The notes beneath the pieces are model-generated. The model made no database searches, was not told where the DNA came from, and was given only the letters and a program-made list of their open reading frames with translations. This document shows positions 1 through 34,177 of a stretch of 64,000 nt of DNA, piece after piece; position 1 is the stretch's first letter, and the number at the start of each line of letters is the position of its first letter. Location: contig CAZSZB010000003.1 in NCBI GenBank assembly GCA_964611205.1, forward strand, positions 23,764-87,763, written 5' to 3'. Made by a program: the position numbers and the translations under genes. The DNA comes from an uncultured Candidatus Saccharibacteria bacterium (GTDB lineage Bacteria; Patescibacteriota; Minisyncoccia; Phycocordibacterales; UBA918).

Positions 1-1451
1 CGACTGGTGCCTTCTTACTCTTAGCACGTTTCGTTATCTTGATAATGTATATGATTTTTTCGCCGGTAATGTTTCTCGGTTGGATACTGCCAAAATTTGC
101 TCAGTATTCTACCAAGTGGTGGACAGGTTTTCTTTCTCAAGCTTTCTTAGCTCCCGCTTATCTCTTTATGCTCTATATATCCTATATTGCAATAGAGCGC
201 TTTCGTATCAACCAGAGGGTAGGTGATAGTCTAGGTGAGGTCCTACAAGAAACCTCCAAGATGGATATTGATACTTTTTATGTTGTTTTAGTCTTCGCTT
301 TTGCTGCTGCTATGCTCATCGCTTCGTTATTGGTAGCTAAACAAATGGGAGCGGTAGGTGCTGGCTCAACAATAAAATTTATGGATGGTATTCAAAAGAA
401 TATTCGGGGTAATATGCAGAGTGCTGTTGGCCGCAGAACAGTTGGGTGGGTAGGTAATAAACTAGCCGAGAGAACAAAACAAAATGAAGGTACCGCAGCG
501 GGTCGGGCCAGGAATAAATGGATGAGCAGAGCAACTTTAGGAACCTTCGATACTCAAGCTAGAATCAAAGCCGGTGATAAGATGGCTGGCAGCACTTTTG
601 GTGGCTCACGATCCTACAGTTCACAGCAGAAGTGGGCGGGAGAGAGACAGGCTTTAGAGGCTAGCGGTGCACAAAGTAATACTTTAAAAGCCGCAGTTAA
701 AAATTACAATGAGCACAAAAACAGTGACGATGCTCAAAAAGCAGCTAAAGCAACAGCGGAACTAGAGAGGGTCTTAAGAGAAACTCATCCAACTACTATA
801 ACTAATACCTTAAAAAATGATGGGGACGGTGCTACTCTTATTAGCTCAATAGCTGGAGAATTAACAGACTCCCAACTCAAAGCCATTAATGACGATAAAG
901 AAATAGATGTTGGTACTAAATCAACTATAGATTCTAACCGATCAACTCAAACCATTGAAAGGTTAGGAAGAATGTATAGTGAGAACAAGAGTCCGACAGC
1001 CAACCTGCAAAATACCATACACAAAGCAGCCGCATCGGAATTAGGAGCCATCGGATTAGAGGAAGTTATAAAGCATGCTGAATATTTATCTGCCAAACAA
1101 ATCGAAGACTGGAAAGATTTAACACCATCGGAAAAAGCTAACTTAAAACAAGCTCGGGAAGCACAATTAAAAGAAACCCTTGCTACACCCGCTGGTGCTG
1201 AAACAATATACAATCGCTTTAAAAGCGATATTGAGAGATCAAAACTACCTAAAGATATCTTGTTAAGTGGTGCCTCTAGTTTATATCTTAACAAAAATGT
1301 TCTAACTCATATTATAGACAACCCGGGAATGACAGGAGATGATAGGGCTAAAATAAAAGAGTTAATTAAAATGCGTTACCCGAGTGACACTCCAGAAGGT
1401 AAGGAGTGGAACGAGTGGTTTAACAAAAATAGTGCTGGACAAAGATTCTAA
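1..1451 (+). CDS. T4SS VirB6/TrbL-like membrane protein, C-terminal part (5' end cut by window edge; frame open to position 3)
   Basis: Hydrophobic N-terminal segment continues upstream with no stop, followed by a long hydrophilic K/A/E/Q-rich tail. It sits in a VirB3/VirB4 neighbourhood. Assignment is by architecture and context only. Confidence 0.35.
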   Translation, partial: TGAFLLLARFVILIMYMIFSPVMFLGWILPKFAQYSTKWWTGFLSQAFLAPAYLFMLYISYIAIERFRINQRVGDSLGEVLQETSKMDIDTFYVVLVFAFAAAMLIASLLVAKQMGAVGAGSTIKFMDGIQKNIRGNMQSAVGRRTVGWVGNKLAERTKQNEGTAAGRARNKWMSRATLGTFDTQARIKAGDKMAGSTFGGSRSYSSQQKWAGERQALEASGAQSNTLKAAVKNYNEHKNSDDAQKAAKATAELERVLRETHPTTITNTLKNDGDGATLISSIAGELTDSQLKAINDDKEIDVGTKSTIDSNRSTQTIERLGRMYSENKSPTANLQNTIHKAAASELGAIGLEEVIKHAEYLSAKQIEDWKDLTPSEKANLKQAREAQLKETLATPAGAETIYNRFKSDIERSKLPKDILLSGASSLYLNKNVLTHIIDNPGMTGDDRAKIKELIKMRYPSDTPEGKEWNEWFNKNSAGQRF

Positions 1452-1453
1452 AT

Positions 1454-2137
1454 ATGGAAATAAATGAACAAAACAGAATAGAAATTTACCGTCAGTCACC
1501 AACCAAGATACGAGAACTCTACACGAGTAGTCGGCCGGGAGAAATCATAACCAAGCTGGGCAATACTTTCGCGATGAATTTTTCTGAAAAATTAGCCATT
1601 GAAATAATCGGTGACTGTATTCTTGGTTTTTATAAAACCACCGACTTACCACGCTTGTTTCAAGAAAAGTTATTAGTCGGGGCTGATCAGGCCCATCGTA
1701 TGACTGCAGAATTTATAGAATTTCTAACACCCGTGATAGAGAGGGAGCAAGCACTGAACAATGCTAGTAAGGCAGAAGTGAAACAATTAGCTGATGATTT
1801 TTCTACCAAAACAGAACGAGAAGTTGTGACTAACGAGTCTGATGATATTACCCCAGTGACACCACTGCGAACTATGCAGGGCGATATCGATCGTATTCAT
1901 GGCTATGGTGCCTACCGAACACAAAACCCTCTATCAGCCAGTCCTGACAACGATGAACCCATCATACAGGCTAGACCGCAAGAAGACCTATTAAATAGAA
2001 ACCCCAAACCAGTAACAGACATGCCCAAATATGATGAAGACATTATCTCATCGGAAGAAGACTCTAGTCCTGCCAAACCGACAAACGAAATACCGACTAG
2101 TACAAAAATACCAATCAGACCAGTAAGCGAAGAATAA
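1454..2137 (+). CDS. hypothetical protein with acidic, Pro-rich C-terminus
   Basis: 227-aa ORF tightly packed after the upstream gene. No recognisable motif. Confidence 0.4.
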   Translation: MEINEQNRIEIYRQSPTKIRELYTSSRPGEIITKLGNTFAMNFSEKLAIEIIGDCILGFYKTTDLPRLFQEKLLVGADQAHRMTAEFIEFLTPVIEREQALNNASKAEVKQLADDFSTKTEREVVTNESDDITPVTPLRTMQGDIDRIHGYGAYRTQNPLSASPDNDEPIIQARPQEDLLNRNPKPVTDMPKYDEDIISSEEDSSPAKPTNEIPTSTKIPIRPVSEE

Positions 2138-2147
2138 GAACAAACTC

Positions 2148-2178
2148 AAAACCTAGGACATCGTAAGTCCTAGGTTTT
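2148..2178. terminator. hairpin plus T-run (aaaacctaggac..gtcctaggtttt)
   Basis: Perfect inverted repeat followed by T-run after the 1454..2137 ORF. Confidence 0.5.
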
Positions 2179-2241
2179 GGTAGAACGTGTTTATCCCTTA
2201 TCAGTCTTAAGGTTATTAGTAATCTCTTATATAATGAAGTT

Positions 2242-2649
2242 ATGCGTTTTGAAGTACCACAATTTATTGAAATAGAGGATAAGATTTTCGGGCCTTTTAC
2301 TTGGCGACAATTTGTCTACTTAGCAGGTGGTGTCGGGTTAGCCGCTGTTATCTTTTTAATAACTCCTTTATTTGTTTTTATTATTATCGGCATACCAATT
2401 GGAGGATTGGGTTTGGCTCTGGCTTTTTATCCAGTCAATAATCAACCTTTTTCAGTTTTTTTAGAATCTATTTTTAGATTTTATAGAAGTGGCCAAACAT
2501 ATCATTGGCGCAGCAAAAGAGACACTGTCTATCGCGATAAAGCTCCCGCCCTGGCTAGTAAGGCCATTTATACAACACCTGATCCTGATAATAATCTACA
2601 TTCTATATCTAAAAAATTAGAGTTGGAGGCCTTACAAAAGGATATCTAA
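2242..2649 (+). CDS. PrgI-family / VirB3-like small membrane protein (Tn916 Orf17-like)
   Basis: 135 aa. An N-terminal FGPFTWRQF motif is followed by two hydrophobic helices and a basic C-terminus, matching PrgI-family architecture. It lies directly upstream of VirB4. Confidence 0.55.
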   Translation: MRFEVPQFIEIEDKIFGPFTWRQFVYLAGGVGLAAVIFLITPLFVFIIIGIPIGGLGLALAFYPVNNQPFSVFLESIFRFYRSGQTYHWRSKRDTVYRDKAPALASKAIYTTPDPDNNLHSISKKLELEALQKDI

Positions 2650-2749
2650 ATATCGATATTGTCACATAACGACTTACTCAGGCGCATGGAAGACGGGTGT
2701 AGATAATTGTGAGACAATATAAACAACTAGGTGGTAATTTTGTTTAAGA

Positions 2750-3382
2750 ATGAAAACTCAAACTCAAAAAACAACTCAGAATTTTGTGCCCATAAGGGAT
2801 GTTAAGGATAATGTAGTAATCCTAAAAGATGGCCGTATGAACGGGGTTCTTTTGGCTTCTTCTATCAACTTTGCTTTGAAATCAGGTGACGAGCAAGCAG
2901 CTATTCTTTCTCATTTTCAGTCTTTTCTCAACACTATAGATTTTTCTGTCCAATTTTATGTCCAGTCAAGAAGACTTGATATACGACCTTATATGGAAAA
3001 ACTGGAGAAGAGAATTCCCGAGCAGCACAATGATTTAATGCGTATCCAGTTACGTGAATACATGGGTTTTATCCAGGCTTTCACTGACGAGGTAGAGGTG
3101 ATGACTAAAAACTTTTTTGTGGTAGTGCCTTATACTCCTACCGAAATAAACCTTAAAGCTAATCTGGGTTCAATTTTAGGAGGGAAGAAAGAGCTCCAGA
3201 TAGATAGTCATAAATTTCAAGAACACCGCACTCAGTTGGAACAACGTATGACTTTGGTAGAACAGGGGTTAAATAGAATAGGTGTAAAGACAGTGGCTCT
3301 AAAAAACGAAGAGTTGGTAGAACTCTATTATCATATTTTTAACCCTGGTGATAACATACCAACAGCACCTAAATATAAATAA
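2750..3382 (+). CDS. VirB4/TrsE N-terminal domain encoded as a separate ORF
   Basis: Segments FVPIRDVKDNVVILKDGR..INFALKSGDEQ..ILSHFQSFLNT resemble the CagE/TrbE/VirB4 N-terminal region. The ORF ends at TAA two bases before the VirB4 ATPase ORF, which is in another frame. Confidence 0.55.
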   Translation: MKTQTQKTTQNFVPIRDVKDNVVILKDGRMNGVLLASSINFALKSGDEQAAILSHFQSFLNTIDFSVQFYVQSRRLDIRPYMEKLEKRIPEQHNDLMRIQLREYMGFIQAFTDEVEVMTKNFFVVVPYTPTEINLKANLGSILGGKKELQIDSHKFQEHRTQLEQRMTLVEQGLNRIGVKTVALKNEELVELYYHIFNPGDNIPTAPKYK

Positions 3383-3384
3383 TT

Positions 3385-5223
3385 ATGGGTATATTAGATA
3401 ACTTAAGAAAGCAAGCCATAAATAAATTAGGCGGGACTAGCGAGAAGGAGAGCAACGAGTCAGATTTTACTCTACCGGACAATGCCTTAATGACCCTTGA
3501 GGATGTAATAGCTCCCTCTGGTGTAGAAGTCACACCCCGTAATATAAACATCAACGGTACTTACGCTCGAACTCTTTTTACCGTTTCTTATCCTCGTTAT
3601 CTTCACGAAGGCTGGTTAGAGCCAATTCTTAACTTAGAGAAAGAACTAGATATATCTATTATTATTCACCCGATTAATACGGCGGATACCCTAAAGAAGT
3701 TTCAGAAAAAAGTAGCTGAGGTAGAGAGTCAGATAAATATGCGCTCTGATAAAGGTATGGTTCGTGACCCTCAACTCGAGGCTGCCTTTCGCAACCTTGA
3801 AGATTTACGTGACAAGCTCCAACAGGCCGAAGAAAAATTATTTGATGTTGGTCTTTATATCACTATCTATGGTGATAATGAAAAGATGCTTGATAAAACA
3901 GAAAGTGAACTTAGAGGGATTCTAGATTCTCGTTTGATTTATCTTAAACCTGCTCTCTTCCAACAAGAGCAGGGGATTCGTAGCGTGCTGCCATTTTGTA
4001 ATGATGAATTAATGATTCATAACAAATTTAATTCATCACCTTTGTCTAGTTTTTTCCCCTTTACTTCTTTTGACCTTACCTCTGACACTGGTATTCTCTA
4101 CGGAATTAACCGTCACAACTCTAGCTTGGTGTTATTTGATCGTTTCCAATTAACCAACTACAACTCAGTAACCTTTGCCACCTCTGGAGCTGGTAAATCA
4201 TACGCCACAAAATTAGAAATCCTTCGGTCTTTAATGTTTGATACCGAAGTAATAGTGATAGATCCGGAAAGAGAGTACGAGTACCTAGCCGAAGCAACTG
4301 GTGGTCGGTTTTTTGATATTTCACTTTCCTCAGACCATAATATCAATCCTTTTGATTTACCTGTTCCGCAACCAGACGAGGACCCTGAAGATGTTTTACG
4401 CTCACATATTATAGAAACGATTGGTTTGTTCAGACTGATGCTGGGCGGCCTATCTGCTGAGGAGGAAACCTTAGTCGACCAAGCCATTCGTGAAACTTAT
4501 GCGCTAAAGGACATTAGTGGTAACGCTGATTACAGCGAATTAGAGCCGCCTTTATTATCTGATTTTGAAATGGTGCTAGCCGGTATGGAAGGTAGCTCTT
4601 CTCTAATTTCTAGGTTACAGAAATATACTTCTGGAACTTGGTCTGGTTTTATGAATCGCCCAACCAACGTCGACATCAACCAACGTTTTGTGGTCTTTTC
4701 CTTGCGTGATATGGAAGACGAACTAAAAACTATTGCGATGTACATCATCACGCACCATATCTGGGGAATGATCCGTCGCCGCTTACAAAAAAGATTGTTG
4801 GTGATAGACGAAGCTTGGTGGATGATGAAAAGTGAGGATACCGCTTCCTTCCTCTTTATGCTCGCTAAACGTGGACGAAAATATTACCTAGGATTAGCTA
4901 CCATCACTCAAGACGTTGATGACTTTTTACGCTCACCTTATGGAGAACCCATGATTACAAACTCCAGTCTTCAGTTTTTAATGAAACAGTCACCGACTGC
5001 TATAGATAATATTCAAAATACTTTCCAATTAACCGACGAAGAGAAGTTCTTACTTTTAGAATCAGCAGTGGGTGAGGGAATATTTTTTGCTGGACTAAAA
5101 CACGTGGCTATTAAGGTGATTGCTTCTTATACAGAAGACCAAATTATTACCTCAGACCCTTCTCAGATTCTACAAATTCAGAAAGCTCGAGCTGAACTCA
5201 AGCAAATACAACCAGATAAATAA
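3385..5223 (+). CDS. virB4: T4SS ATPase VirB4/TrsE family (ATPase portion)
   Basis: Walker A motif ATSGAGKSYAT, a VIDPEREYEY segment and an LLVIDEAWWMM Walker B-like motif. 612 aa. Confidence 0.85.
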   Translation: MGILDNLRKQAINKLGGTSEKESNESDFTLPDNALMTLEDVIAPSGVEVTPRNININGTYARTLFTVSYPRYLHEGWLEPILNLEKELDISIIIHPINTADTLKKFQKKVAEVESQINMRSDKGMVRDPQLEAAFRNLEDLRDKLQQAEEKLFDVGLYITIYGDNEKMLDKTESELRGILDSRLIYLKPALFQQEQGIRSVLPFCNDELMIHNKFNSSPLSSFFPFTSFDLTSDTGILYGINRHNSSLVLFDRFQLTNYNSVTFATSGAGKSYATKLEILRSLMFDTEVIVIDPEREYEYLAEATGGRFFDISLSSDHNINPFDLPVPQPDEDPEDVLRSHIIETIGLFRLMLGGLSAEEETLVDQAIRETYALKDISGNADYSELEPPLLSDFEMVLAGMEGSSSLISRLQKYTSGTWSGFMNRPTNVDINQRFVVFSLRDMEDELKTIAMYIITHHIWGMIRRRLQKRLLVIDEAWWMMKSEDTASFLFMLAKRGRKYYLGLATITQDVDDFLRSPYGEPMITNSSLQFLMKQSPTAIDNIQNTFQLTDEEKFLLLESAVGEGIFFAGLKHVAIKVIASYTEDQIITSDPSQILQIQKARAELKQIQPDK

Positions 5224-5225
5224 AT

Positions 5226-5975
5226 ATGGCTTCAGCAAAGAAAGTAGTCGGAGAGGGAGTGGAAAGTGTCAGTAGTCCACGTCACAACCAAAACAGCTAC
5301 AAGCCTTTTGGTGACCCAGATCAATATGCCGAAGATTACACAGCCGAACAATTAAAAAAAAGACGTCAGCGAGTTCAAAAAGGTAATCCCCAGCAGGGTG
5401 CGGATGCTAACGATCAACAGTCTTCAAAATACTTAAATCATCCTATACCATTTGCAAAAGACAGTGTTTCTCTCATTAGTGATGTAGCCCTAAAAATTAA
5501 GGCTACCAGAACCAGTATGGCTATCGGGGCTCCAACTTTCACCTGGTACCTGATGGTGCAATTACCTTTATTCGTTGCCTCTATGGTTTTTTTACTACTT
5601 GCTGCTTCTATGGAAGCTGTTTCTGCCACTGCCGATTCTTCAGTTATACTCAAAGCACTCACAGCCCCTTTAGCCGGGGCAAACTATGTACTGTCATTGG
5701 TTGGTATTGATATTTCTAAACTCAGTTATGATGCTCTGTTAGGAGCAGGAGCTGGTCTTAGTATGCTTAATGCCGGACTGGCTTTGGTATTTATGTTTGC
5801 GGCCGCTATTATGTACTCACTTTCTGGAGTACATTGGTTATTCGGTAAACACTCAGCTTTAAAAATTGGCTTTTTCTTATTGGCTATAATTGGTTATTTT
5901 TCTGGTATATTCCAATTTATTCCGTGGATTTTTGGCTGGATTTTTGTGGTTTCATTATACCCGGGCGATAATTAA
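5226..5975 (+). CDS. polytopic membrane protein of T4SS-like cluster
   Basis: Multiple hydrophobic helices and translational coupling to virB4. Confidence 0.5.
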   Translation: MASAKKVVGEGVESVSSPRHNQNSYKPFGDPDQYAEDYTAEQLKKRRQRVQKGNPQQGADANDQQSSKYLNHPIPFAKDSVSLISDVALKIKATRTSMAIGAPTFTWYLMVQLPLFVASMVFLLLAASMEAVSATADSSVILKALTAPLAGANYVLSLVGIDISKLSYDALLGAGAGLSMLNAGLALVFMFAAAIMYSLSGVHWLFGKHSALKIGFFLLAIIGYFSGIFQFIPWIFGWIFVVSLYPGDN

Positions 5976-6044
5976 GTCCTCTATTTAGTTTGGTTTTAAA
6001 CATTTTTTAAACAGAATGTAACACCTTCGTGTTAATCTAAAGCT

Positions 6045-7007
6045 ATGAAGAAATTATTTGCTCTTACATTTTTTTGGTTCTTTTTATTACCTTTTAGCAG
6101 TCTCCAAGCTCAAGGAGTTGCTATTGATCAAAATTTTTCTATTAAAACAAGCCCCGCAATACCAGAACCAAACTCCGAGGTCACTGTTGAGCTGGATGCT
6201 TATGCCTACGACACGGTAGGAGCAACTATAAATTGGTTTATAGATGGTCAAGAAAATACTAACGTCAAAAACCAATACAACTTTAAGCTAAATACCAAAG
6301 CGATTGGGCAGGCGACTGAAATAAAAGTTGTTGCGACAATGCCATCAGGAAAAACCTTAACGAAAACTATCTTACTGAAACCAGCTCGAGTAGATGTGGT
6401 TATTGAAGCAAATACTTTAGTGCCATCTTTTTATCAAGGACGAGCTTTGCCGACTATTGGCAGTACAATTAGGGTAATAGCTACTCCTTACACAGGCGAA
6501 AGTACCGCTGCTAAAGATTTCACCTATGCTTGGAAACACGACAATCAGGTACTTTTTGGTGGTCCTGTTAAAGGCAAGCAAGTAGCAGAAATAGAAGTAG
6601 GACAAGGTTTAGAACAGATTATTACTGTTGATGTTATAAACAAAAATGGAGTTACAGTCGCTAGAAAATCAGTTGTTCTACCTCTTCACAAACCAGAAGT
6701 TGTTTTTTATGAAGAAAATCCGTTACGAGGAGCTTCTCAAATAGCCATCAATAATAGTTACTATCTAACCAGTGACGAAGTAACACTACGAGCAGAACCA
6801 TATTATATGGACAAAAATATTTTTTCTAGTCAACCGTTAATCGAATGGACACTTAATAACAGGAAAATATCTAATCAGAGCCAAGATCCCCAATATCTAA
6901 CTTTGCAGAAAAAAACCGATGCTGGGGCTGTTAAGTTACGATTCCACATCCGTAATCTCAATCAATTATTGCAAGGAGTTAAAGGTGATCTGAGTATAAG
7001 TTTTTAA
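6045..7007 (+). CDS. secreted protein with N-terminal signal peptide
   Basis: MKKLFALTFFWFFLLPFSSLQAQG signal-like N-terminus, with beta-rich repeats downstream. Confidence 0.5.
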   Translation: MKKLFALTFFWFFLLPFSSLQAQGVAIDQNFSIKTSPAIPEPNSEVTVELDAYAYDTVGATINWFIDGQENTNVKNQYNFKLNTKAIGQATEIKVVATMPSGKTLTKTILLKPARVDVVIEANTLVPSFYQGRALPTIGSTIRVIATPYTGESTAAKDFTYAWKHDNQVLFGGPVKGKQVAEIEVGQGLEQIITVDVINKNGVTVARKSVVLPLHKPEVVFYEENPLRGASQIAINNSYYLTSDEVTLRAEPYYMDKNIFSSQPLIEWTLNNRKISNQSQDPQYLTLQKKTDAGAVKLRFHIRNLNQLLQGVKGDLSISF

Positions 7008-7054
7008 GATTATAAGTTAGCTGTATACAAGACAGTTAATAGGTAAGTCGTCCA

Positions 7055-8242
7055 TTGTATAATGGGATGGTGAAAAGAACGATAATCATAACGATTGGTG
7101 CAATCACCATATTACTTATATTCACCGTTTGGTTATATTTGCTATTTTTTGGTGCCCCTGATGAAACTAATGATATTTTTACCAATCTTGGTTTTGCACC
7201 AGCTATGCAGGAAACTATTCCTGAAATGGTCCCTATTGAAGTAAAGACAGAACATACGGTAAATGTCGCTGAGGGCTTGCAACAGCTCACCACCAAGGCC
7301 GTAGCCGGTTTCATAGCTATCAAAGCTAGCACTTCCACTCCAACCATTGTCCGTTACGTAGAACAGGGAACTGGTTATATTTTCGACATAGATTTAAATA
7401 CCGGTGAAGAAAAGGTGATTAGTCAAAATACTTTTCCTAAAGTCAGACAAGCAGTATTTTCACCCGATGGACAAGCGGTTGCTTTAACAGCTGTTACTGG
7501 TTATGAAAGAAATACTTTTGTCGGCTTAATTGATACTGTTAATAACAAAATAACTGGTGAAAATATAATTCCTAATGCAAATAATATTCATTTACCTAAT
7601 AATCACAGTGTTAAATACACGGTGGAGTCTGAAGATAACCTGCTTGGCTACACCTACGATTTTGTAGCTGGAAAGTTACGACAAGAATTTGTAGTTCCTT
7701 TCCTGGCTGTTAAAGTGCTCTGGCAAGAGGACAATGAAACCTATCTATACAATAAACCGACCGCTGAGTTACCAGGCTACCTATACAAAATAAAAGCCGG
7801 GAGTTATGAAGCAACTGATATTCATGGCTACAGTCTAACTGTTGAAAATAACAGTCAATTTCTAGGCTATAGTTATCAACAAAATGGTTCTTACCAAACT
7901 AAGTTTAAAAGCATTAGCAGTGGTACAGAGTATGATTCACCGATTGTTTTGGTACCAGAAAAATGTGCTTTTTATAATAAAACTAACCTAACCCAGATGT
8001 GGTGCGCTAACCCAATCATCCCAACCAGTTTCGATATCACCAAATGGTATCAGGGCAAAATATCAACTTCAGATTATTTGTGGCAGGTATCAGTCCAGCA
8101 AAATCAAGCTGTCCTACTTAGTGATTTAGAGGCAGTTAGTGGTAGACCGATTGATGTGAAAGATCTTATGATTACGGGTGATGACACTCTCTTACTTTTC
8201 TCTAATAAACTTGATAATACTTTATGGAAATTCGACATCTAG
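7055..8242 (+). CDS. N-terminally membrane-anchored exported protein
   Basis: Single N-terminal TM helix followed by a large hydrophilic domain. Confidence 0.45.
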   Translation: MYNGMVKRTIIITIGAITILLIFTVWLYLLFFGAPDETNDIFTNLGFAPAMQETIPEMVPIEVKTEHTVNVAEGLQQLTTKAVAGFIAIKASTSTPTIVRYVEQGTGYIFDIDLNTGEEKVISQNTFPKVRQAVFSPDGQAVALTAVTGYERNTFVGLIDTVNNKITGENIIPNANNIHLPNNHSVKYTVESEDNLLGYTYDFVAGKLRQEFVVPFLAVKVLWQEDNETYLYNKPTAELPGYLYKIKAGSYEATDIHGYSLTVENNSQFLGYSYQQNGSYQTKFKSISSGTEYDSPIVLVPEKCAFYNKTNLTQMWCANPIIPTSFDITKWYQGKISTSDYLWQVSVQQNQAVLLSDLEAVSGRPIDVKDLMITGDDTLLLFSNKLDNTLWKFDI

Positions 8243-9171
8243 ATAAGCATTTTATATTAAGCTCAGTACTTTTAACTCTGACTCTTTTGGCGATTATTTT
8301 TCCTTTACCAACCTTGGCAATAACCTACACTCCGCTGGTAGAAGGCATGCCTACTGTGGAAAGTTCAGATATATCAGGCTATATAAACGCCCTTTACACA
8401 TTAGCTATTAGCTTAGCAGCTCTCCTAGCGGTAGTAAAAATCATTCTCGCTGGTATGAAGTACATACTCTCTGATGTTGTCCCGAGCAAAAGCGACGCTA
8501 AAAAAGATATCTGGGGAGCTGTTATCGGATTATTAATTGTACTCTCTGCTGTTCTTATCCTTAACACCATCAACCCCAACCTAACTGATTTTAATATCTT
8601 CAAAGAAGCTATTTATACCGAAAGAGAATACTCCGGTGATTTGGGGGAATATTGTGATACTTACTCTCGAAGTAAAGAGTGCCAAGAAAAAGATTACTAT
8701 GGAGCAGCAGGAATTAGGGGAAATGACTCCTTAGGTAACCCGGTCTTGTACGATTATCAATCGCTATCCGCTACTAGAGTTCATCAGTTCATTGAAAGCT
8801 GCGGTTCCGGAAAAATTGTTACTAGTGTAGATGGTTCGATGACATGTAGAGGAGGTGACCAGGCTACACTAGGGAGTGTTGTAAATACCGAAGAGGCTCT
8901 CGAATTAATACCGCCAAGCTTAGCGGATAATGAAAAACAAATTTTAACAGAGCAATTTAGGGAATATGTGGCACCTTATGAGCCAAAAGATGTAGATATT
9001 AATTTAATTAAAGAACAGACTGGTGCTAACAACGTCCTTTTTGTTGTCCAACAAGACCTTCTCCAGACCCGTTCTAATGCTGGTGCTGAATCACAACAGG
9101 AAGCATATTGCTCAGCTATTGGTGGAGAAATAGTACAAGGAGGATCGTATTACAGAGCTTGTGTAAATTAA
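8224..9171 (+). CDS. pilin-like protein (VirB2/TrbC-type two-helix hairpin) with Cys-rich C-terminal domain
   Basis: Long leader, then two hydrophobic helices separated by a basic loop (SKSDAKKD), then a C-terminal domain with at least 6 Cys. Confidence 0.35.
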   Translation: MEIRHLDKHFILSSVLLTLTLLAIIFPLPTLAITYTPLVEGMPTVESSDISGYINALYTLAISLAALLAVVKIILAGMKYILSDVVPSKSDAKKDIWGAVIGLLIVLSAVLILNTINPNLTDFNIFKEAIYTEREYSGDLGEYCDTYSRSKECQEKDYYGAAGIRGNDSLGNPVLYDYQSLSATRVHQFIESCGSGKIVTSVDGSMTCRGGDQATLGSVVNTEEALELIPPSLADNEKQILTEQFREYVAPYEPKDVDINLIKEQTGANNVLFVVQQDLLQTRSNAGAESQQEAYCSAIGGEIVQGGSYYRACVN

Positions 9172-9899
9172 TTATTACGATGCCTTCGCACTACGAATTC
9201 TTGAGCGATGGCCATGAGGTTACTGACTGTGAAGTACAGAGCAATTGAAGCTGAAATAGTATAAGCCACTACAAAGATTATGGCTGGCATAACATAGCGC
9301 ATTTGCACGTGCATACTACGAGCGAAGTCTCCTTTAAGATCTGGTTTTTCACCCTCTTTCTTTGGCTCTGGTTTAGGAAGAGATATCTTAGCGTGAATAA
9401 ACTGAGTAATACCAGCTAGGGCTGCTAACGGGAGACTCTTAGCAGCAATATCTATAAAACCAAGGAAGAACATTGAGACTGTTTCGGGAGCAGTAACAAA
9501 AGAGTAAAGAATCTCGATATTAATATCTGGTAACGGAAATCCACCACCCCGAGAAACAGATAGGTAGAGGGCTATAATAACTGGTATCTGAATAAAAAGC
9601 TGAAGGATACTGGCAAACGGATTAACGTTATTCGTACGATAAAGCTCTAACATCGCCTTAGATTGTTCTTGTTTGTCCTTAATCCTGTCCTTAATTTCTT
9701 TGAGTTTTGGTTCTAGCTCACGCATAACCATTTGTGTTTTTGTCGCCTTAATAGAAAGCGGCAACAAAATTAGCTTTACCAAAATAGTTATCAAAATGAT
9801 AGAAAGACCAACATCTCCCCCTGGCACTACATCAATGAAAAAAACTAAACCATTATAAATCGGATCAAAGAAGACGTTGTGCCAGATGGAATTAAACAT
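9168..9899 (-). CDS. yidC: membrane protein insertase YidC (short form)
   Basis: YidC/Oxa1 hydrophobic core plus a charged coiled region (KLKEIKDRIKDKQEQ). Conserved rpmH-rnpA-yidC synteny. Confidence 0.85.
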   Translation of the reverse strand: MFNSIWHNVFFDPIYNGLVFFIDVVPGGDVGLSIILITILVKLILLPLSIKATKTQMVMRELEPKLKEIKDRIKDKQEQSKAMLELYRTNNVNPFASILQLFIQIPVIIALYLSVSRGGGFPLPDINIEILYSFVTAPETVSMFFLGFIDIAAKSLPLAALAGITQFIHAKISLPKPEPKKEGEKPDLKGDFARSMHVQMRYVMPAIIFVVAYTISASIALYFTVSNLMAIAQEFVVRRHRNN

Positions 9900-9983: not shown

Positions 9984-10307
9984 TTATTTTATATTACCAA
10001 GAACTGTCACTAGATCATTATTGATTTCTTTTTTTGTTAAATTTTTAGCCGCTGGTTTAACTAGCACCAAATAAACACCAGTTAGTGAGTGTTCCTTTTG
10101 AAAATTAAATAACTGACTATAGAGTCTACGGCGCAATAGATTACGTTTAACAGCTTGCTTGTAGACTTTCTTACCAACCACAACAGCCGCTTTAAAGTCA
10201 GCTTGTGGAGTATAGATTATTTGTATAGCAGGGGAGTGAAAACGTTTACCTTTTTTAAAGAAGTAATCAAATTCTGAGGTAGTAAGTCTTTGCTTTTTTC
10301 TAAACAT
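9984..10307 (-). CDS. rnpA: RNase P protein component
   Basis: MFRKKQRLTTSEFDYFFKKGKRFHS..VVVGKKVYKQAVKRNLLRRRL matches the RnpA signature. The start is trimmed to the internal Met. Confidence 0.8.
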   Translation of the reverse strand: MFRKKQRLTTSEFDYFFKKGKRFHSPAIQIIYTPQADFKAAVVVGKKVYKQAVKRNLLRRRLYSQLFNFQKEHSLTGVYLVLVKPAAKNLTKKEINNDLVTVLGNIK

Positions 10308-10387
10308 TTTTATTAGTTTAAGTTTAAACGGAGTAAAAGAAAAGAGCAACGACACCTTCTAAGTGTCGTTGCTCTTTTCTTAACCGA

Positions 10388-10537
10388 CTATTTTGATTTT
10401 TTAACCGCTAGTGAAACACGACCCTTACGACGTCGATTACGTAGAATCTTTATTCCTGTTTTTGAGGCCGTTCGCGCTAAGAAACCATGAGTGGTCATAC
10501 GTTTCTTTTGGCTCGGCTGATAAGTTCTTTTTACCAT
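10388..10537 (-). CDS. rpmH: 50S ribosomal protein L34
   Basis: Hand translation gives [49 protein letters not shown]. It is below the ORF-track size cutoff. Confidence 0.85.
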
Positions 10538-10656: not shown

Positions 10657-10729
10657 GTTATACACAACTTATACACAGATGACTGGGGTTGCAAAAAAAA
10701 TCGGGCGGTTTCTTTTGGTTTTATCCACA
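10657..10729. promoter_or_regulatory. oriC-type DnaA box cluster upstream of dnaA
   Basis: TTATACACA at 10657-10665 and 10668-10676, and a perfect TTATCCACA at 10721-10729. Confidence 0.6.
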
Positions 10730-10734
10730 AAAAG

Positions 10735-10762
10735 TTTACAGTTTCGGTGGGGAGGGTATAAT
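10735..10762 (+). promoter_or_regulatory. putative sigma70-type dnaA promoter (TTTACA-16-TATAAT)
   Basis: Hexamers read directly, 34 nt upstream of the dnaA ATG. Confidence 0.4.
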
Positions 10763-10795
10763 GCTTTCACTACTTAAATTGACTAAGTCTTTGTT

Positions 10796-12178
10796 ATGAA
10801 TACACAATCACATCTATCTACAAACAATATTGTCCACACTGAACAAGTAGATGTAAAAAAATTGTGGGATGACGCCTTAGTCAATATTGAACTATCAATT
10901 ACTCCAGCCAACTTCAAAACTTGGTTTAAAGACACTTACATTGTTTCTCTGGAAGATGGGACCATCACTCTTGGGGTACCTAGTGTTTTTGTTCGTGACT
11001 GGTTACAGGATAAATTCCAAACTCTAGTGTTAAAAACCCTCCGAGAATTAACCCCTCATGTTCGCAGCATCGAATATACAGTAGTACAACGTAATGACAA
11101 AAAGCAAAGCAATAGCCGCACCCAAACAGTTAATGCTTCTTTACCTTTAGAAGAATATTACATAAACAAAAATGACAACTTAAACCCAAAATATACTTTT
11201 GGTACATTTGTCATAGGTCCTTTCAATGCCTTAGCCCACACTGCTGCTAAAACTGTTAGTGAGAAACCAGGGATTGCTTATAACCCACTCTTTATCTACG
11301 GAAAAACTGGTCACGGTAAAACTCATCTTATTCAAGCTGTTGGTAACCAACTTAAAAAAGCTGGCAAAAAAGTTTTTTATGTTACCAGCGAACGTTTTAC
11401 AGTAGATTATTTCAATTCTCTACAAAACGGTACGGCTAATAATTTTAAAGATAAATATCGCCAATATGACGTTCTGATAATGGATGATATTCAATTTTTA
11501 GCTAATAAAGAGAAAACTCAAGAAGAATTATTCCACTTATTTAACGCTTTACACGATTGTAATAAACAAATTGTTTTTTCTAGTGATCTTCATCCAGCTT
11601 TACTTTCTGGCTTAGAGGACAGACTACGATCTCGCTTTAGCCAGGGTATGATTGTTGATATTCCAGCTCCTGATATGGAATCACGAGCCGCTATTTTACG
11701 AGCTAAAGCAGCCCAAAATAGCTTAAGTCTATCTGAAGAAGTAGTTGACCACTTAGCAAATACTATTGAAGGTAATATTAGGGAATTGGAAGGGGCACTT
11801 AATACTATTATGTGTCAATCTCAGTTAATGGGGCGTACTCTTTCTCTAGATGAAGTTAAAACCATCATAAAAAATAGCACTCGACCGCGAAAAACTCTGG
11901 CTGTATCTGATGTAGTAGAAAAAGTTGCTCGTTATTTCGATATTGATCCAGCCTCAATCTATGAAAAAACCCGTCGCAAAGAAATTGTTAAACCAAGGCA
12001 ACTTATTATGTATATTTTGCGAGAAGATTTTCAAGTTTCTTACCCAGCGATTGGGCAAAAGTTAGGGGGCCGTGACCATACTACAGTTATTCACTCTTGT
12101 GAGAAGATAAGAAATGATTTGAAAGGTAACTCAGAACTTGATGAAGAAATTACTCAGATAAGATTACTTCTTAAATAA
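10796..12178 (+). CDS. dnaA: chromosomal replication initiator DnaA
   Basis: AAA+ Walker A GKTGHGKTHL, a DVLIMDDIQF box, and the C-terminal DNA-binding helix region. Confidence 0.95.
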   Translation: MNTQSHLSTNNIVHTEQVDVKKLWDDALVNIELSITPANFKTWFKDTYIVSLEDGTITLGVPSVFVRDWLQDKFQTLVLKTLRELTPHVRSIEYTVVQRNDKKQSNSRTQTVNASLPLEEYYINKNDNLNPKYTFGTFVIGPFNALAHTAAKTVSEKPGIAYNPLFIYGKTGHGKTHLIQAVGNQLKKAGKKVFYVTSERFTVDYFNSLQNGTANNFKDKYRQYDVLIMDDIQFLANKEKTQEELFHLFNALHDCNKQIVFSSDLHPALLSGLEDRLRSRFSQGMIVDIPAPDMESRAAILRAKAAQNSLSLSEEVVDHLANTIEGNIRELEGALNTIMCQSQLMGRTLSLDEVKTIIKNSTRPRKTLAVSDVVEKVARYFDIDPASIYEKTRRKEIVKPRQLIMYILREDFQVSYPAIGQKLGGRDHTTVIHSCEKIRNDLKGNSELDEEITQIRLLLK

Positions 12179-12180
12179 AA

Positions 12181-12208
12181 CACTTCAGTTAACTGAAGTG
12201 TTTTATTT
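12181..12208 (+). terminator. hairpin cacttcagttaactgaagtg plus T-run
   Basis: Lies immediately after the dnaA stop. Confidence 0.5.
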
Positions 12209-12349
12209 AATATCTACAGCTGTGTATAAAGCTGTAGATAAGTAATGGAAATTCAAAAGTTCCTCTGTTAGTAAAGCTAGTGTAGAATGAGGGACAACTG
12301 TGAATGCTTTGGGGATTAGAAAGAAGTTATACCCACTTTTTTAGAAACT

Positions 12350-12470
12350 CTCAGCTATACACAAACTTATCCGAGTTATTACCCACTTCTATTAACAGTT
12401 TCCACAAAAATAACCACTAAAATAAAACATATACTAAGCCATAGATTTGAGATTTCCACAGATCCACAGA
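12350..12470. promoter_or_regulatory. second DnaA-box-like cluster / AT-rich region between dnaA and dnaN
   Basis: cTATACACA, TTTCCACAA, TTTCCACAG and gATCCACAG variants lie within an AT-rich stretch, giving a bipartite-origin-like layout. Confidence 0.35.
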
Positions 12471-12510
12471 CCTAATAATAAGGAGTAAAATAGAAGAATA
12501 AAAAATAATT

Positions 12511-13605
12511 ATGCACATCACTCTCGACAAAGACCAATTATTAAAACAATTGGAATTAGCACAAAAGATAAGTACTAAACATGCTACCTTGCCGGTACTA
12601 CAGTGTTTACTTTTAGAAGCAAAAGATGGGCAATTAATTATTAGAGCTACTAACTTAGAAATTGGTTTAGAATCAACTATTAAAGCTAATATTGAAACAC
12701 CAGGAAAAATTGCCGTCCCTGCTACTACTTTGACACAAACTATTTCTTTTTTGAATTGTAAGGAAGTTACTCTGAAAGTAGAAGATTCTGTTTTATTGGT
12801 TGAAAGTAATGGTTCTAATACGAGTATAAAAACTATCCCCGATGATGAATTTCCTACTATCCCTAAGATAAAAACTACTGGTCAGACAATTAAGAAAGAT
12901 TTATTTTCTTTAGGAATTAAAACAGCTGCTATTGCAGCTAGTGTAGCCTCTATTAAACCTGAGTTAGGAAGTATTTACATAAATCAAAAAAAAGAACACA
13001 CTCTAACTTTTGTGGCAACAGATTCCTTTCGTTTAATAGAAAAAACAGTCCCCCAAAAAGGTTTTGTTTTAGATGAATCTATAATGATTCCTTATAAAAA
13101 TGCTCTGGAATTAGCTCGAGTTTGTGATGTGGAAGAAGGAGACGTTGAGTTAAAGATAAATGAAAATCAATGTGCCTTAGTCTTTTCAGATGGTCTTTAT
13201 ATAACTTCTCGTTTAACAACTGGATCTTTCCCTGATTATGAACAAATAATACCAAAAGAGTACTCTTCACATACCACTTTAATAAAACAAGATTTACAAA
13301 ATACCTTCAGAAAAACAAATATTTTTTTAAACAAGTTTTTACAAGTTACTCTAAACATAACCAATAATTCTCTAACCGTATCAGCTAATAGTGGAGATGT
13401 TGGTAATACTACTGAATCAATCAAAGCCCAAACAGAAGGTGATGAATTAACTTTAAGTTTTAATCAACGTTATCTTTCAGAACCTTTAAATTATATTACT
13501 GATGATAGTTTGGTGATGCATTTTGCTGGTATTGGTAGACCTTTGGTTATGAGTGGTGTGAATGATAATACTCTACGTTATTTGGTTATGCCGATGAATA
13601 AGTAG
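12511..13605 (+). CDS. dnaN: DNA polymerase III beta sliding clamp
   Basis: Position after dnaA, a three-domain clamp length of 364 aa, and the N-terminal MxITLDKDQLLKQL..PVLQCLLLEA pattern. Confidence 0.9.
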   Translation: MHITLDKDQLLKQLELAQKISTKHATLPVLQCLLLEAKDGQLIIRATNLEIGLESTIKANIETPGKIAVPATTLTQTISFLNCKEVTLKVEDSVLLVESNGSNTSIKTIPDDEFPTIPKIKTTGQTIKKDLFSLGIKTAAIAASVASIKPELGSIYINQKKEHTLTFVATDSFRLIEKTVPQKGFVLDESIMIPYKNALELARVCDVEEGDVELKINENQCALVFSDGLYITSRLTTGSFPDYEQIIPKEYSSHTTLIKQDLQNTFRKTNIFLNKFLQVTLNITNNSLTVSANSGDVGNTTESIKAQTEGDELTLSFNQRYLSEPLNYITDDSLVMHFAGIGRPLVMSGVNDNTLRYLVMPMNK

Positions 13606-20806: not shown

Positions 20807-22537
20807 TTAAGTTAGACTTGGTGTGGTGTCAGAGTCAGTGTTTTCTTTTTCATCAGACTTCTGTTCGTGTCGTCCGTTAAATAAATCTACAACACGTTGT
20901 AGCTCGGTAAGAGACGTTATGCCTCTGATCACTTTATCTATTCCGTCTTCGGCCATAGTAGGGATGTTTTGTTTTTCGGCGGCTTCTAATATTACGTGTT
21001 CACGTGAGTCTTCTATGACTGCGGCTTCTACTTCTTTGTCCATACGAATGGCTTCAAAAACAGCCTCTCGTCCACTGAAACCTGTTTGGTTACAAGCATC
21101 ACAACCCTTAGCTTCAAATATATATAAATCTTTAGGTATGGTCGGAGTTTGCGGATGAGTTAATAGTATTGACTCTATCAAGCTTCTTTCTTCGGGGGTA
21201 GCCAACTTAGCTTCCTTACACTCGTTGCATAAAACTCGAACTAAGCGTTGTCCCAAAACCAGGTTTATAGACGAACCAATTATGTGATCTTGGATACCCA
21301 AATCTATCAAACGTGGGAAAGCCCCGACTGCACTATTGGTATGCAGGGTAGAGAAGACAAGGTGACCAGTCTGGGCCGCGTGAATAGCAGTTTCTGCTAC
21401 TTCACGATCACGAATCTCACCGATCATAATGATGTCCGGGTCTTGTCTGAGGATTGCTTTCAAACCAGTTTCAAAAGAGTAGCCTTCGGCTACTTGAGTC
21501 TGCACGATATTATCAAGTTTGTATTCAACTGGGTTTTCAACTGTAATAATTTTAACTCCTGGCTTGTGAACTTGTTGCAAAAAAGCGTAAAGGGCAGTAG
21601 TTTTTCCGGACCCGGTTGGACCAGTCGTTAGGATTAGTCCGTTTGGTCTTTGTAATTCTTCTTTTAGAACATCATAAAGAGCTTTGTTTAATCCTAATGA
21701 ATCCATTTTAAAACTGGCTACTGTTGGATCAAGTAAACGCATCACCATAGATTCTCCAGAGGCGCCAGGAATAATAGAAGATCGTACTTCAGTATCTTTA
21801 TCTTTAGTGTTGAAAGTAAAACGTCCGTCCTGAGCTTGATCTTTTATATTAAGGATCATGCCAGAGAGTAGTTTCAAGCGTGAGATTAGGCGTTCATAAA
21901 TACTTTTATCTAGGTCAACTATGTCGTGAAGAACTCCATCTAAACGGTAACGCAATCTGATGCTACCTTCTTCTGGTTCAATGTGAATGTCTGAAGCATT
22001 CAGAGCTAAAGCTCCAGCCAGAATAGCCTCTAGAGTTTCTGAAATCCGGCGGGCGTTGTTAAGGGTTTTGATATTAGTGAGATAGTTGGAAACAGCTTCG
22101 GGAGTTTTTAATTTTTTAGTTTGCTCGCTAATATTGTTGGTATCAATATCAAGGGCACCGTATTTTACGGCAGTGGTATCTTTTTGGTCTTTATAACGCT
22201 GCCAGCCGTGCTCTAAGCTATTGGTGGAGGTCATAAAAATATTAATTTCATAACCTTTATCCCTTAAATCGTTGAGAACCGCTTGGGTTTTTTGATTGTT
22301 GGGATTACGGATAGCTACCGATAAATTTTTGCGGTTAGTTTCAAAAGCTATCATATTAGCTTCCTGAGCTGTTACTTCAGGAATAGTTTTTAAGGCTGAA
22401 GGATTTATATAAGCACCGCGTAAATCAATAAATTCGTAACCATATTGATTGGAGAGGGAACGAATCAAACCTTCCTCCTCAAGACGGCGGAGTTGCTTTA
22501 ATTTGTCTTCATCAAAAGTATCATCGAATTGAACCAT
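20807..22537 (-). CDS. pilB: type IV pilus assembly ATPase PilB (GspE family)
   Basis: Walker A TGPTGSGKTT, Asp and His boxes, and a CxxC tetracysteine motif (CNECK..CDACNQTG). Confidence 0.9.
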   Translation of the reverse strand: MVQFDDTFDEDKLKQLRRLEEEGLIRSLSNQYGYEFIDLRGAYINPSALKTIPEVTAQEANMIAFETNRKNLSVAIRNPNNQKTQAVLNDLRDKGYEINIFMTSTNSLEHGWQRYKDQKDTTAVKYGALDIDTNNISEQTKKLKTPEAVSNYLTNIKTLNNARRISETLEAILAGALALNASDIHIEPEEGSIRLRYRLDGVLHDIVDLDKSIYERLISRLKLLSGMILNIKDQAQDGRFTFNTKDKDTEVRSSIIPGASGESMVMRLLDPTVASFKMDSLGLNKALYDVLKEELQRPNGLILTTGPTGSGKTTALYAFLQQVHKPGVKIITVENPVEYKLDNIVQTQVAEGYSFETGLKAILRQDPDIIMIGEIRDREVAETAIHAAQTGHLVFSTLHTNSAVGAFPRLIDLGIQDHIIGSSINLVLGQRLVRVLCNECKEAKLATPEERSLIESILLTHPQTPTIPKDLYIFEAKGCDACNQTGFSGREAVFEAIRMDKEVEAAVIEDSREHVILEAAEKQNIPTMAEDGIDKVIRGITSLTELQRVVDLFNGRHEQKSDEKENTDSDTTPSLT

Positions 22538-33191: not shown

Positions 33192-33259
33192 TTTTTGGCT
33201 CTAGACTTTGTGAAAGAAATTAGATAGTTTAAGTTGAACAAAAAAGAAGGAGTTCTTCA

Positions 33260-33532
33260 ATGGAAGCAGAAAAAGTCCAAGAGGTCATCCAGCTTTATCG
33301 TCGCGAGTTTGAGGCGACGGGTGTTGGTAAGACCAAATATCCTCACGGAAAGTCGTTGGATCAGTCCAGTCACAGCCTCGAGCATTGCCACGCTATGCTC
33401 GATGATATGGATGAATTCCTGAAGGAAGGTAGGACTGACAAAGTCTTCCGCTGGCTCGGTTTCATACAGGGAGTTCTTTGGGCCCAAGGCCTTTACTCAC
33501 TGACCGAATTGACCGGTCACAATCGCCCTTAG
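33260..33532 (+). CDS. hypothetical protein encoded in GC-rich (about 52%) DNA
   Basis: 90-aa ORF starting where GC content jumps relative to the ABC transporter gene. A hairpin terminator lies at about 33568-33600. Confidence 0.35.
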   Translation: MEAEKVQEVIQLYRREFEATGVGKTKYPHGKSLDQSSHSLEHCHAMLDDMDEFLKEGRTDKVFRWLGFIQGVLWAQGLYSLTELTGHNRP

Positions 33533-33777
33533 TTGGGAGGAAAAGACAGAAAGACAGTAAGATTTAAGGTCGTCCGATTTATCGGACGGCCTTTCTGGTT
33601 GGAGTTAATGGAAAGGGATTGCTTTGCTTTTTCTAATTCTTTACAGGAACTGTGTAGGTTAACTAATATTTTTCCTTCGTCAAAATATTAGTTAACCTCT
33701 CGAGAAAATGTGTAAACATTTTCTCTCCCCAACCCTCCCATGCGCGCACTGAACCATCTGAAAACAGATAGTCTTCC

Positions 33778-33807
33778 AAAAAAAACCACCAGTATGCACA
33801 CTGGTGG
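33778..33807 (-). terminator. rho-independent terminator on minus strand (ccaccagtgtgcatactggtgg + T8)
   Basis: Perfect 8-bp GC-rich stem followed by eight T on the minus strand. Confidence 0.55.
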
Positions 33808-33932
33808 CATTTTCGGTTCGTGTGTTGGCTTGCGGACAAGCCTTCAGGGACGTGTCCGCTCTGCGAGCGGAAAGGAACGGTGCTGGTGCATCAGCGTGTT
33901 GGACATCCATGTCCTGAACCGACGGGCTGGGC

Positions 33933-34052: not shown

Positions 34053-34177
34053 CGCAGTCTCCTTGTCCGAGTGTGAAGGAAGTCACACGCTCATTGGCCA
34101 GATAATACTGACCTCTATAGCTAAAAGTAGTAGATTTTGTTTTTTTTCAAGTGAGAAGTGAAGAGAAAAGTGAAAAT

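Follow-up and report, generated by a model that had tools for sequence, protein, structure and literature searches.

A type IV secretion gene cluster beside dnaA in a Patescibacteria genome, and the variable domain of its pilin

Is a cluster of conjugation-like genes that shows no relaxase a mobile element, or is it part of the permanent equipment of the bacterium that carries it? The question is raised by the first 9,171 nucleotides of a 64,000-nucleotide stretch of DNA (GenBank assembly GCA_964611205.1, contig CAZSZB010000003.1, positions 23,764 to 87,763 of the forward strand), which we call the window and which is deposited as DNA of an uncultured Candidatus Saccharibacteria bacterium. A first-pass annotation had seen there a type IV secretion system (T4SS) of Gram-positive type in an apparent symbiont genome, and had suggested that, should relaxase, coupling protein and oriT be missing from the whole genome, it more likely serves host interaction or DNA uptake than conjugation. 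In our opinion, the cluster is quite probably the core chromosomal T4SS of a Patescibacteria bacterium (class Paceibacteria, near Kaiserbacteria), inherited vertically, derived from the monoderm conjugation apparatus of the mating-pair formation type FATA (MPF-FATA) and used for exchange with a host cell. A role in host interaction had already been published for Patescibacteria T4SSs in 2023 and 2025, and the locus is another example of the system described in those years, which it matches in every respect that we tested.

Composition of the cluster

The region 1..9171 holds ten open reading frames (ORFs), all on the + strand and spaced by -19 to +105 nt. The proteins of the window were searched against Pfam and NCBIfam profiles with curated cutoffs. 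Upstream, the cluster could be followed on L001, a 16-kb public contig that is 100% identical to the window over the aligned 600 nt at the window start and reaches 3,855 nt further. The genes and their right-hand boundary are these:

1..1451, + strand: VirB6-like polytopic membrane protein, 3' two-thirds of the gene (transmembrane scan; PF04610 matches of orthologues; full length from L001)
1454..2137, + strand: 227-aa protein without known family (no Pfam or NCBIfam match)
2242..2649, + strand: PrgI/VirB3-like small membrane protein (PF12666)
2750..3382, + strand: TrsD-like protein, equivalent of a detached VirB4 N-terminal domain (NF041427)
3385..5223, + strand: VirB4 ATPase, MPF-FATA, CD1110 family (NF045971, PF19044)
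5226..5975, + strand: 249-aa membrane protein with three transmembrane segments, without known family (transmembrane scan)
6045..7007, + strand: secreted protein of 320 aa with three Ig-like/FN3-like domains (AlphaFold2, Foldseek)
7067..8242, + strand: membrane-anchored beta-rich protein of 391 aa, or 395 aa from a TTG at 7055 (sequence features)
8224..9171, + strand: VirB2-type pilin with a six-cysteine ectodomain (PF18895, AlphaFold2)
9168..9899, - strand: yidC, the housekeeping boundary (PF02096, E 1.2e-42)
9984..10537, - strand: rnpA and rpmH (gene calls with PF00825 and PF00468 on L001)
10658..12517, no strand: oriC region, including dnaA at 10796..12178 (DnaA-box-like 9-mers; DnaA domains)

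The ORF calls and the matches to PF12666, NF045971 and PF18895 bear out the gene set of the first-pass annotation, with its coordinates, and place it on the + strand. The pilin gene and yidC are convergent and overlap by 4 nt. On L001 the upstream order is ksgA/rsmA (PF00398, 2.9e-29), a gene for a membrane-anchored protein of 290 aa, a gene for a secreted protein of 501 aa, and the VirB6-like gene; the 290-aa and 501-aa genes are co-oriented with the cluster. The cluster is therefore flanked by ksgA at one end and by yidC-rnpA-rpmH-dnaA-dnaN at the other.

The VirB4 protein matches NF045971 over model positions 183-733 (E 5e-108, 362 bits against a cutoff of 325) and P-loop_TraG, PF19044 (3.7e-26), and its Walker A (SGAGKS) and Walker B (LLVIDE) motifs are both intact. 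PrgI matches PF12666 (E 1.9e-12, 48 bits against a cutoff of 27), and the product of 2750..3382 matches the TrsD profile NF041427 (3.7e-9). A VirB4 of the CD1110 family accompanied by PrgI and TrsD indeed belongs to the MPF-FATA, or Gram-positive, type that had been proposed. The proposed gene order from the VirB6-like gene to VirB4 also stands, except that VirB4 is encoded by two genes (2750..3382 and 3385..5223) and that the window edge truncates the first ORF.

The division of VirB4 follows from two comparisons. The TrsD-like protein, whose precomputed annotation is PF26593 TraC-like, matches VirB4 models at N-terminal positions only (NF045971 2-104). The VirB4 of the window aligns with PrgJ of the Enterococcus faecalis plasmid pCF10 at 25% identity over 562 residues (E 2e-42), its residues 36-570 facing PrgJ 222-772, and is without the N-terminal ~220 residues of PrgJ. 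Hence the TrsD-like protein corresponds to the part absent from the VirB4 of the window and, at the level of sequence, VirB4 is split into a TrsD-like N-domain and an ATPase body. PrgJ, by contrast, is one polypeptide of 796 aa. The staphylococcal Trs system of pGO1, from which the TrsD profile stems, resembles the window in encoding a separate TrsD-type gene with virB4. What pCF10 does share with the window is the order VirB6-like (PrgH), PrgI, VirB4 (PrgJ), but it has PcfC (VirD4), the relaxase PcfG, the hydrolase PrgK, the VirB8-like PrgL/PrgD and LPXTG adhesins, and has no pilin; the window shows none of these components and has a pilin instead. Unlike the window, pGO1 Trs also belongs to a conjugative plasmid, with a relaxase and a type IV coupling protein (T4CP) and without a VirB2-like pilin (PMC12102498).

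The VirB6-like label needs more caution. The full-length protein has 726 aa (L001:3126-5306), its start lying 730 nt before the window, and a transmembrane (TM) scan gives at least six TM helices in the N-terminal half and a hydrophilic C-terminal tail of ~370 aa, a topology consistent with an 'extended VirB6'. The protein of the window itself has no Pfam match, 2 of 15 orthologues match TrbL/VirB6 (PF04610, best E 2.4e-5), and hhalign against pCF10 PrgH gives a weak signal across the TM region (E 0.086, 181 columns). The label, which the first-pass annotation had used, is thus kept on transitive grounds, through the orthologues, and not by a direct match. Alignment of the VirB6-like, 501-aa and 290-aa families by hhalign with pCF10 PrgH, PrgK and PrgL yielded nothing beyond this PrgH signal. 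The PDB profile matches of the same three families were discarded as coiled-coil noise.

For the remaining proteins, of 227, 249, 320 and 391/395 aa, neither Pfam nor NCBIfam offers a known family. The 227-aa protein has no TM segments, evolves fast and ends in an acidic, proline-rich C-terminus; the 249-aa protein has a hydrophilic N-terminus of ~100 aa followed by three TM segments. The product of 6045..7007 has a classical signal peptide and, in an AlphaFold2 (AF2) model (mean predicted local distance difference test, pLDDT, 88.8; predicted TM-score, pTM, 0.72), three tandem beta-sandwich domains. Its top Foldseek matches in the PDB are NCAM Ig1-3, SGBP-B, the S-layer protein SbsB and phage Hoc (E from 4e-9), and the modelled domains resemble the Ig/FN3 arrays of adhesins, S-layer proteins and phage Hoc. 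The 391/395-aa protein combines a membrane anchor at its N-terminus with a beta-rich ectodomain and invariant C304 and C317; the hints of a beta-propeller fold in this family are sub-threshold and confined to single orthologues. Three exported proteins had been predicted after VirB4. This agrees with the signal peptide of 6045..7007 and the long signal peptide of the pilin, while the product of 7055/7067..8242 turns out to be anchored in the membrane by its N-terminus. The 501-aa family has four conserved cysteines, with extra Ig-like or discoidin domains in some orthologues, and its features are consistent with a place at the cell surface.

Within the operon, a hairpin with a 13-bp stem (2147..2179) lies between the 227-aa gene and prgI, and a TATAAT hexamer at ~2229..2234 ends ~7 nt before the prgI ATG. 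Several of the relatives L003-L014 have a TGTATAAT motif just 5' of prgI, and a strong hairpin occurs at the same site in some close ones (L006, with similar sequence, and L012). Hairpin and hexamer are possibly an internal terminator followed by a promoter, in which case the prgI transcript could be leaderless or have a very short leader.

Position and conservation in relatives

A VirB4 scan of species-representative genomes gave 589 confirmed relatives, of which the best 80 were kept; all counts out of 80 refer to these. Their VirB4 proteins are 67-84% identical to that of the window, against the 25% of the Firmicutes VirB4 (pCF10 PrgJ). Wherever the record titles of the 80 name a lineage, it is Kaiser-, Nomura-, Campbell-, Taylor- or Zambryskii-bacteria or Paceibacteria/Parcubacteria; some say 'bacterium' only, and no lineage outside the Patescibacteria is named in the titles of these best 80 of 589. 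This fits the origin from a symbiont of the candidate phyla radiation that was suspected in the first pass. The label 'uncultured Candidatus Saccharibacteria' on the records of many relatives is probably automatic labelling.

Sixteen proteins of the window and L001 were compared by BLAST with the ORFs of the 80 loci, and colinearity was read where the contigs were long enough. Comparative genomics found the same cluster order in these 80 Paceibacteria-type species genomes: ksgA, 290-aa, 501-aa, VirB6-like, (227-aa), PrgI, TrsD, VirB4, (3-TM), Ig-like/395-aa/pilin, yidC, rnpA, dnaA, dnaN, the relative order of the Ig-like, 395-aa and pilin genes differing between loci. TrsD and VirB4 were detected in 80/80 loci, PrgI in 79/80, the Ig-like protein in 74/80, the 395-aa protein and the pilin in 63/80 each and the VirB6-like protein in 60/80; with a hidden Markov model of the pilin domain the pilin is found in 66/80. 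BLAST detects the 227-aa and the 249-aa protein in 14/80 loci each, and in most loci an ORF stands at the same position, right after virB4 in the case of the 249-aa protein. For the flanks we counted only loci with at least 8 kb after virB4 (n=55) or at least 9.5 kb upstream (n=47): dnaA follows virB4 at a distance of 3.6-8.7 kb in 52 of the 55, and ksgA lies upstream in 44 of the 47.

Median identity to the window protein is 71% for VirB4, 61% for DnaA, 54% for TrsD, 50% for YidC, 48% for PrgI, 41% for DnaN and 26-39% for the envelope proteins. As the proportion of synonymous differences (pS) is saturated, dN/dS cannot be computed and comparison is limited to the nonsynonymous proportion (pN); this is 0.11-0.13 for VirB4, near the 0.08-0.10 of DnaA and half of the values for YidC and DnaN. 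The identities and pN values of VirB4 and DnaA point to a vertically inherited and strongly constrained core system, and the cluster genes are, on these sequence comparisons, under strong purifying selection. The GC content of the cluster (37-41%) is the same as that of the adjoining core genes. The available text of PMC12102498 contains no description of VirB4 being better conserved than DnaA.

DnaA-box-like 9-mers occur upstream of dnaA (10658, 10669, 10721, 10830) and in the dnaA-dnaN gap (12221, 12233, 12509), so that 7 of the 24 such matches in the window are concentrated in 1.9 kb. Given these clusters around dnaA and the dnaA/dnaN neighbourhood, we place oriC here, with the T4SS operon abutting it.

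There is no conjugation module linked to the cluster. The domain scan covered window ORFs of at least 300 aa and the small ORFs of a compositionally odd island described below. It found no relaxase domain in the scanned ORFs of the window or L001, where the upstream sequence instead adds two more cluster genes and then ksgA, and no T4CP (VirD4/TcpA) domain in the scanned window ORFs or the cluster, a statement about this locus only. A VirD4-like gene lies within 10 kb of the cluster in one of the 80 loci, L081, and its product has no tblastn match in the window or the other 79 loci. That gene (L081:428-3220, - strand) encodes 931 aa with matches to TraG-D_C (1.9e-5) and T4SS-DNA_transf (1.4e-4) and a HerA-type P-loop, and is situated ~1.2 kb upstream of virB4 on the opposite strand. 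Neither att-like or significant direct repeats flanking the cluster nor an integrase inside it were found. The absence of a visible relaxase or coupling protein from the window had been noted in the first pass, which held a conjugative element to be the less likely reading if that absence is genome-wide. Domain scans and tblastn uphold the absence for the window, and together with the fixed position of the locus they speak against an ordinary conjugative element.

All this agrees with what is known of Patescibacteria. In 3,035 genomes, Quinonero-Coronel et al. (2025, PMC12102498) describe a monophyletic Patescibacteria VirB4 clade inside MPF-FATA, with TrsD, PrgI, VirB6 and VirB2-like (PF18895) genes near virB4. 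They found relaxases in only 103 of the 3,035 genomes and VirD4/T4CP homologues in 2,918, unlinked to virB4. The same survey reports dnaA, dnaN, rnpA, ksgA and rpmH as neighbours of the cluster in Paceibacteria and Microgenomatia (PMC12102498). The window has the same MPF-FATA VirB4, TrsD, PrgI/VirB3 and PF18895 pilin, with a putative VirB6-like protein, near virB4, the same lack of an adjacent relaxase or T4CP, and the same neighbours dnaA, dnaN, rnpA, rpmH and ksgA; nothing essential differs. A 2025 review counts the Patescibacteria systems as a new T4SS category (PMC12857230).

Some further observations concern this neighbourhood. All of the T4SS operon is situated to the left of the DnaA-box clusters, and its transcription runs toward them, in the same orientation in all relatives; if oriC is there, the operon would run head-on to the leftward replication fork. 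GC skew across the operon is flat. Between rpmH and rnpA there is a perfect 19-bp inverted repeat with a 7-nt loop (10337..10381). A UvrD helicase is encoded upstream of ksgA in 34 relative loci; L061:2-2914 (+ strand) encodes a UvrD-family helicase with an intein-splicing domain match.

The pilin and its ectodomain

The one pilin gene of the window cluster (8224..9171) matches PF18895 over residues 50-116 (E 9e-7, 29.3 bits against a cutoff of 26.6). The AF2 model (pLDDT 74) consists of a signal-peptide helix (~1-32), a hairpin (50-82/89-116), a disordered linker (128-161) and an alpha/beta domain (162-315) with pLDDT about 80-90. There are exactly six cysteines (residues 144, 153, 193, 208, 296 and 313), all beyond the second hydrophobic helix. 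The VirB2-like two-helix topology with a six-cysteine extracellular domain, as proposed in the first pass, is thus well founded, and the structure predictions suggested there gave three Ig-like domains for 6045..7007 and hairpin plus ectodomain for 8224..9171. With the signal peptide cleaved, the topology would place the C-terminal domain outside the cell. A structure search matched no solved fold to the ectodomain.

Canonical mature VirB2/TraA pilins of Gram-negative bacteria have ~70-120 aa and no extra domain. The pilin of the window resembles them in its long signal peptide, its two hydrophobic helices, its short loop, which reads as basic in the sequence, and its PF18895/PF04956 signal. 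It differs in the 189-aa extension after helix 2, made up of a 35-residue linker and a disulfide-rich domain of ~155 residues, and in coming from a monoderm organism.

How general is this extension? Among 120 homologues from the databases the tail has a median of ~151 aa and 4.9% cysteine, against 0.46% in the proteins of the locus. The number of cysteines in the tail is even in 110 homologues, odd in 4 and zero in 6; even counts are as expected of disulfide-bonded extracellular domains. For the comparison of tail families we took the 56 orthologous pilins whose tails reach at least 80 aa. Their pilin domains are mutually detectable in 99% of pairs and their tails in 1%, and the tails fall into 39 separate sequence families; in contrast, orthologue pairs of the Ig-like, 395-aa and 501-aa proteins are detectable in 92-100% of cases. 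When the tail of the window pilin was searched exhaustively against 1.84 billion representative proteins, only four credible relatives appeared, all of them pilin fusions of 290-321 aa. Two further candidates, P0147 (2999 aa) and P0148 (1000 aa), were rejected as artefacts, their scores being sums over near-identical repeats with independent E-values of ~1e-3 each; their Pfam 'hits' likewise contain zero significant stretches. In some relatives the pilin domain occurs twice in the cluster, either in two genes or within a single ORF (L041:13786-15219, L014, L005, L012, L046, L063, L080).

Such a hypervariable, cysteine-rich pilin ectodomain seems to be undescribed in the searchable literature. 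Within that literature PF18895 is mentioned only in PMC12102498 and a structure-clustering preprint, and the available text of the former does not describe a fused domain of this kind.

The ectodomain may be a host-recognition module. The pilin extracellular domain is the one component that changes wholesale between species, which makes it the obvious candidate for host specificity and a handy marker from which the host range of uncultured lineages could be predicted. One may go further and picture the single T4SS pilin of Paceibacteria as a modular host-recognition protein, in which a VirB2-type hairpin and a linker carry a swapped or diversified, disulfide-stabilised ectodomain cassette that decorates a pilus-like fibre and sets host choice. 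This bolder version is suggested by the 39 tail families among 56 pilins and by the four tail relatives being pilin fusions without exception; we hold it to be tentative, and would expect it to fail sooner than to succeed.

What the system does, and the rest of the window

Function can be approached by analogy with Southlakia epibionticum (class Saccharimonadia). Its T4SS, which resembles Gram-positive conjugative systems, is essential for epibiotic growth according to transposon sequencing (Tn-seq), the pilin genes included, and neither a coupling protein nor a relaxase could be recognised in it (Wang et al. 2023, PMC10633639). A t4cp homologue lies far from virB4 and is non-essential (PMC12102498). 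Like the cluster studied here, the S. epibionticum ML1 system (SEML1_0006-0019) is monoderm-type and chromosomal, contains pilins and shows neither of those two proteins; it lies near the start of the genome numbering (PMC10633639). It differs in its array of six divergent VirB2-like pilins and in the peptidase and lysozyme genes that follow virB4; no hydrolase could be recognised in the cluster of the window, whose only pilin gene encodes a fused ectodomain. T4SS-pilin genes rank near the top in expression among the unknown genes of cultured Paceibacteria-type parasites of methanogens (PMC10936435).

In the reading that we prefer, VirB4 and TrsD would power an inner-membrane translocon, of which PrgI and the VirB6-like protein, perhaps joined by the unclassified 3-TM protein, are the candidate membrane components. 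This ATPase-driven channel would assemble a pilin-based surface structure, with the variable, disulfide-bonded C-terminal domain of the pilin facing outside, and the disulfide-bonded envelope proteins, the Ig-like one among them, would cross the wall or sit on it. If S. epibionticum is a valid guide, the machine would mediate contact-dependent exchange with the host, by protein export, by uptake of host molecules or both, and not conjugative DNA transfer. The formation of a pilus, the direction of transport and the substrate are what we infer here, and the host-exchange function itself rests on the essential T4SS of Southlakia. We know of no other T4SS than that of Patescibacteria that is at present known to be essential for the growth of its owner. 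Across Paceibacteria the constraint on VirB4 is no weaker than that on DnaA, and this speaks for a function that is inherited vertically and cannot be dispensed with in this class as well.

Several points weigh against this assignment. To our knowledge nobody has yet observed a substrate, an effector or a pilus of a Paceibacteria T4SS, and the function is borrowed from another class, Saccharimonadia. Requirement of the T4SS for host-dependent growth has been reported for S. epibionticum only (PMC10633639). The homology of the VirB6-like protein is weak and indirect. VirB8- and VirB1-like components were not detected, the profiles of the 290-aa and 501-aa proteins being negative against the PDB and against pCF10 PrgL and PrgK. 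Canonical pilus packing might leave no room for a domain of 189 aa on a VirB2-type pilin. Finally, an unlinked T4CP or an unfamiliar relaxase may be encoded elsewhere in the genome.

The first rival to be weighed is a system for assembly of a pilus or adhesin only, in which the work of VirB4 and the membrane proteins would end with extracting the pilin, polymerising it and exposing its variable ectodomain for attachment, while no substrate is moved. VirB4 acts as a pilin dislocase in canonical systems, and the presence of the pilin in the cluster at 66 of the 80 loci, an ectodomain that is hypervariable and disulfide-rich in the manner of adhesin tips, and the Ig-like accessory proteins, with discoidin or Ig domains in some orthologues, would all suit an adhesion fibre. 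However, type IV pili for adhesion are already encoded in the window, and two indirect arguments, that a VirB6-like channel protein has been retained and that VirB4 is extremely conserved, suggest more than the assembly of a fibre. We consider this explanation unlikely.

Marginally less likely again is a T4SS for DNA uptake (competence), comparable to ComB of Helicobacter pylori or the archaeal Ced system, in which the pilin would capture DNA and VirB4 would power its import. An architecture with a pilin and without relaxase or T4CP formally fits ComB. VirB4 has a weak local NCBIfam match to CedB/CedD near Walker B (E 5e-8 and 0.04), but the CedB match amounts to ~70 P-loop residues and 31.9 bits against a cutoff of 700, and no other Ced or ComB family was matched in Pfam or NCBIfam. 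In the class ABY1, T4SS loci co-localise with comF, recG and radA (PMC12102498); in our 80 loci, com genes occur in the cluster in none. The window also has separate PilB, PilM and PilN, and type IV pili serve competence together with ComEC in Saccharibacteria. Moreover, deletion of comEC in S. epibionticum ends competence and not viability, while its T4SS is essential (PMC12857230, PMC10633639).

That an integrative conjugative element or a degraded plasmid transfer module has come to lie near oriC by chance is hardly credible: VirB4, PrgI and TrsD are families otherwise typical of Firmicutes conjugative elements, the PrgH-PrgI-PrgJ order is that of pCF10 and the window does contain an unrelated serine-recombinase island, but that island lies 24 kb off with restriction-modification and phage-like genes and no transfer genes, while the scanned ORFs include no relaxase or T4CP, and the cluster lacks an integrase and att-like repeats around it, keeps its ksgA and yidC-rnpA-dnaA flanks in dozens of species, has the GC content of its core neighbours and contains a VirB4 whose divergence tracks that of DnaA and is lower.

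With the core T4SS for host exchange thus preferred, the rest of the window can be described briefly. The scanned ORFs are housekeeping, type IV pilus, restriction-modification or phage-like genes. Type IV pili are a second surface-filament system in the same 64 kb: genes for the PilB ATPase, PilM and PilN lie at 20807..22537 (- strand) and 47949..49650 (+ strand), with ORFs to 51673, and four small ORFs downstream of them have no family matches. The island, at ~33200..46300, has a GC content of 44-51% against ~39% and adjoins a tRNA-Ser (46306..46395). It looks, from its gene content, like an integrated phage-derived or defence island without transfer genes:

35309..36652: ParB-N6/N4 methylase
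36654..37229: terminase-small-like helix-turn-helix protein
37201..37659: HNH endonuclease
39376..41070: Eco57I/TaqI-type restriction-modification methylase
41542..42882: large serine recombinase
42963..46256: ResIII/SNF2 helicase, 1097 aa

The same high-GC island contains, at 38069..38204 on the - strand, a match to the Rfam LOOT RNA (RF03000) with 73.4 bits against a gathering score of 46.4.

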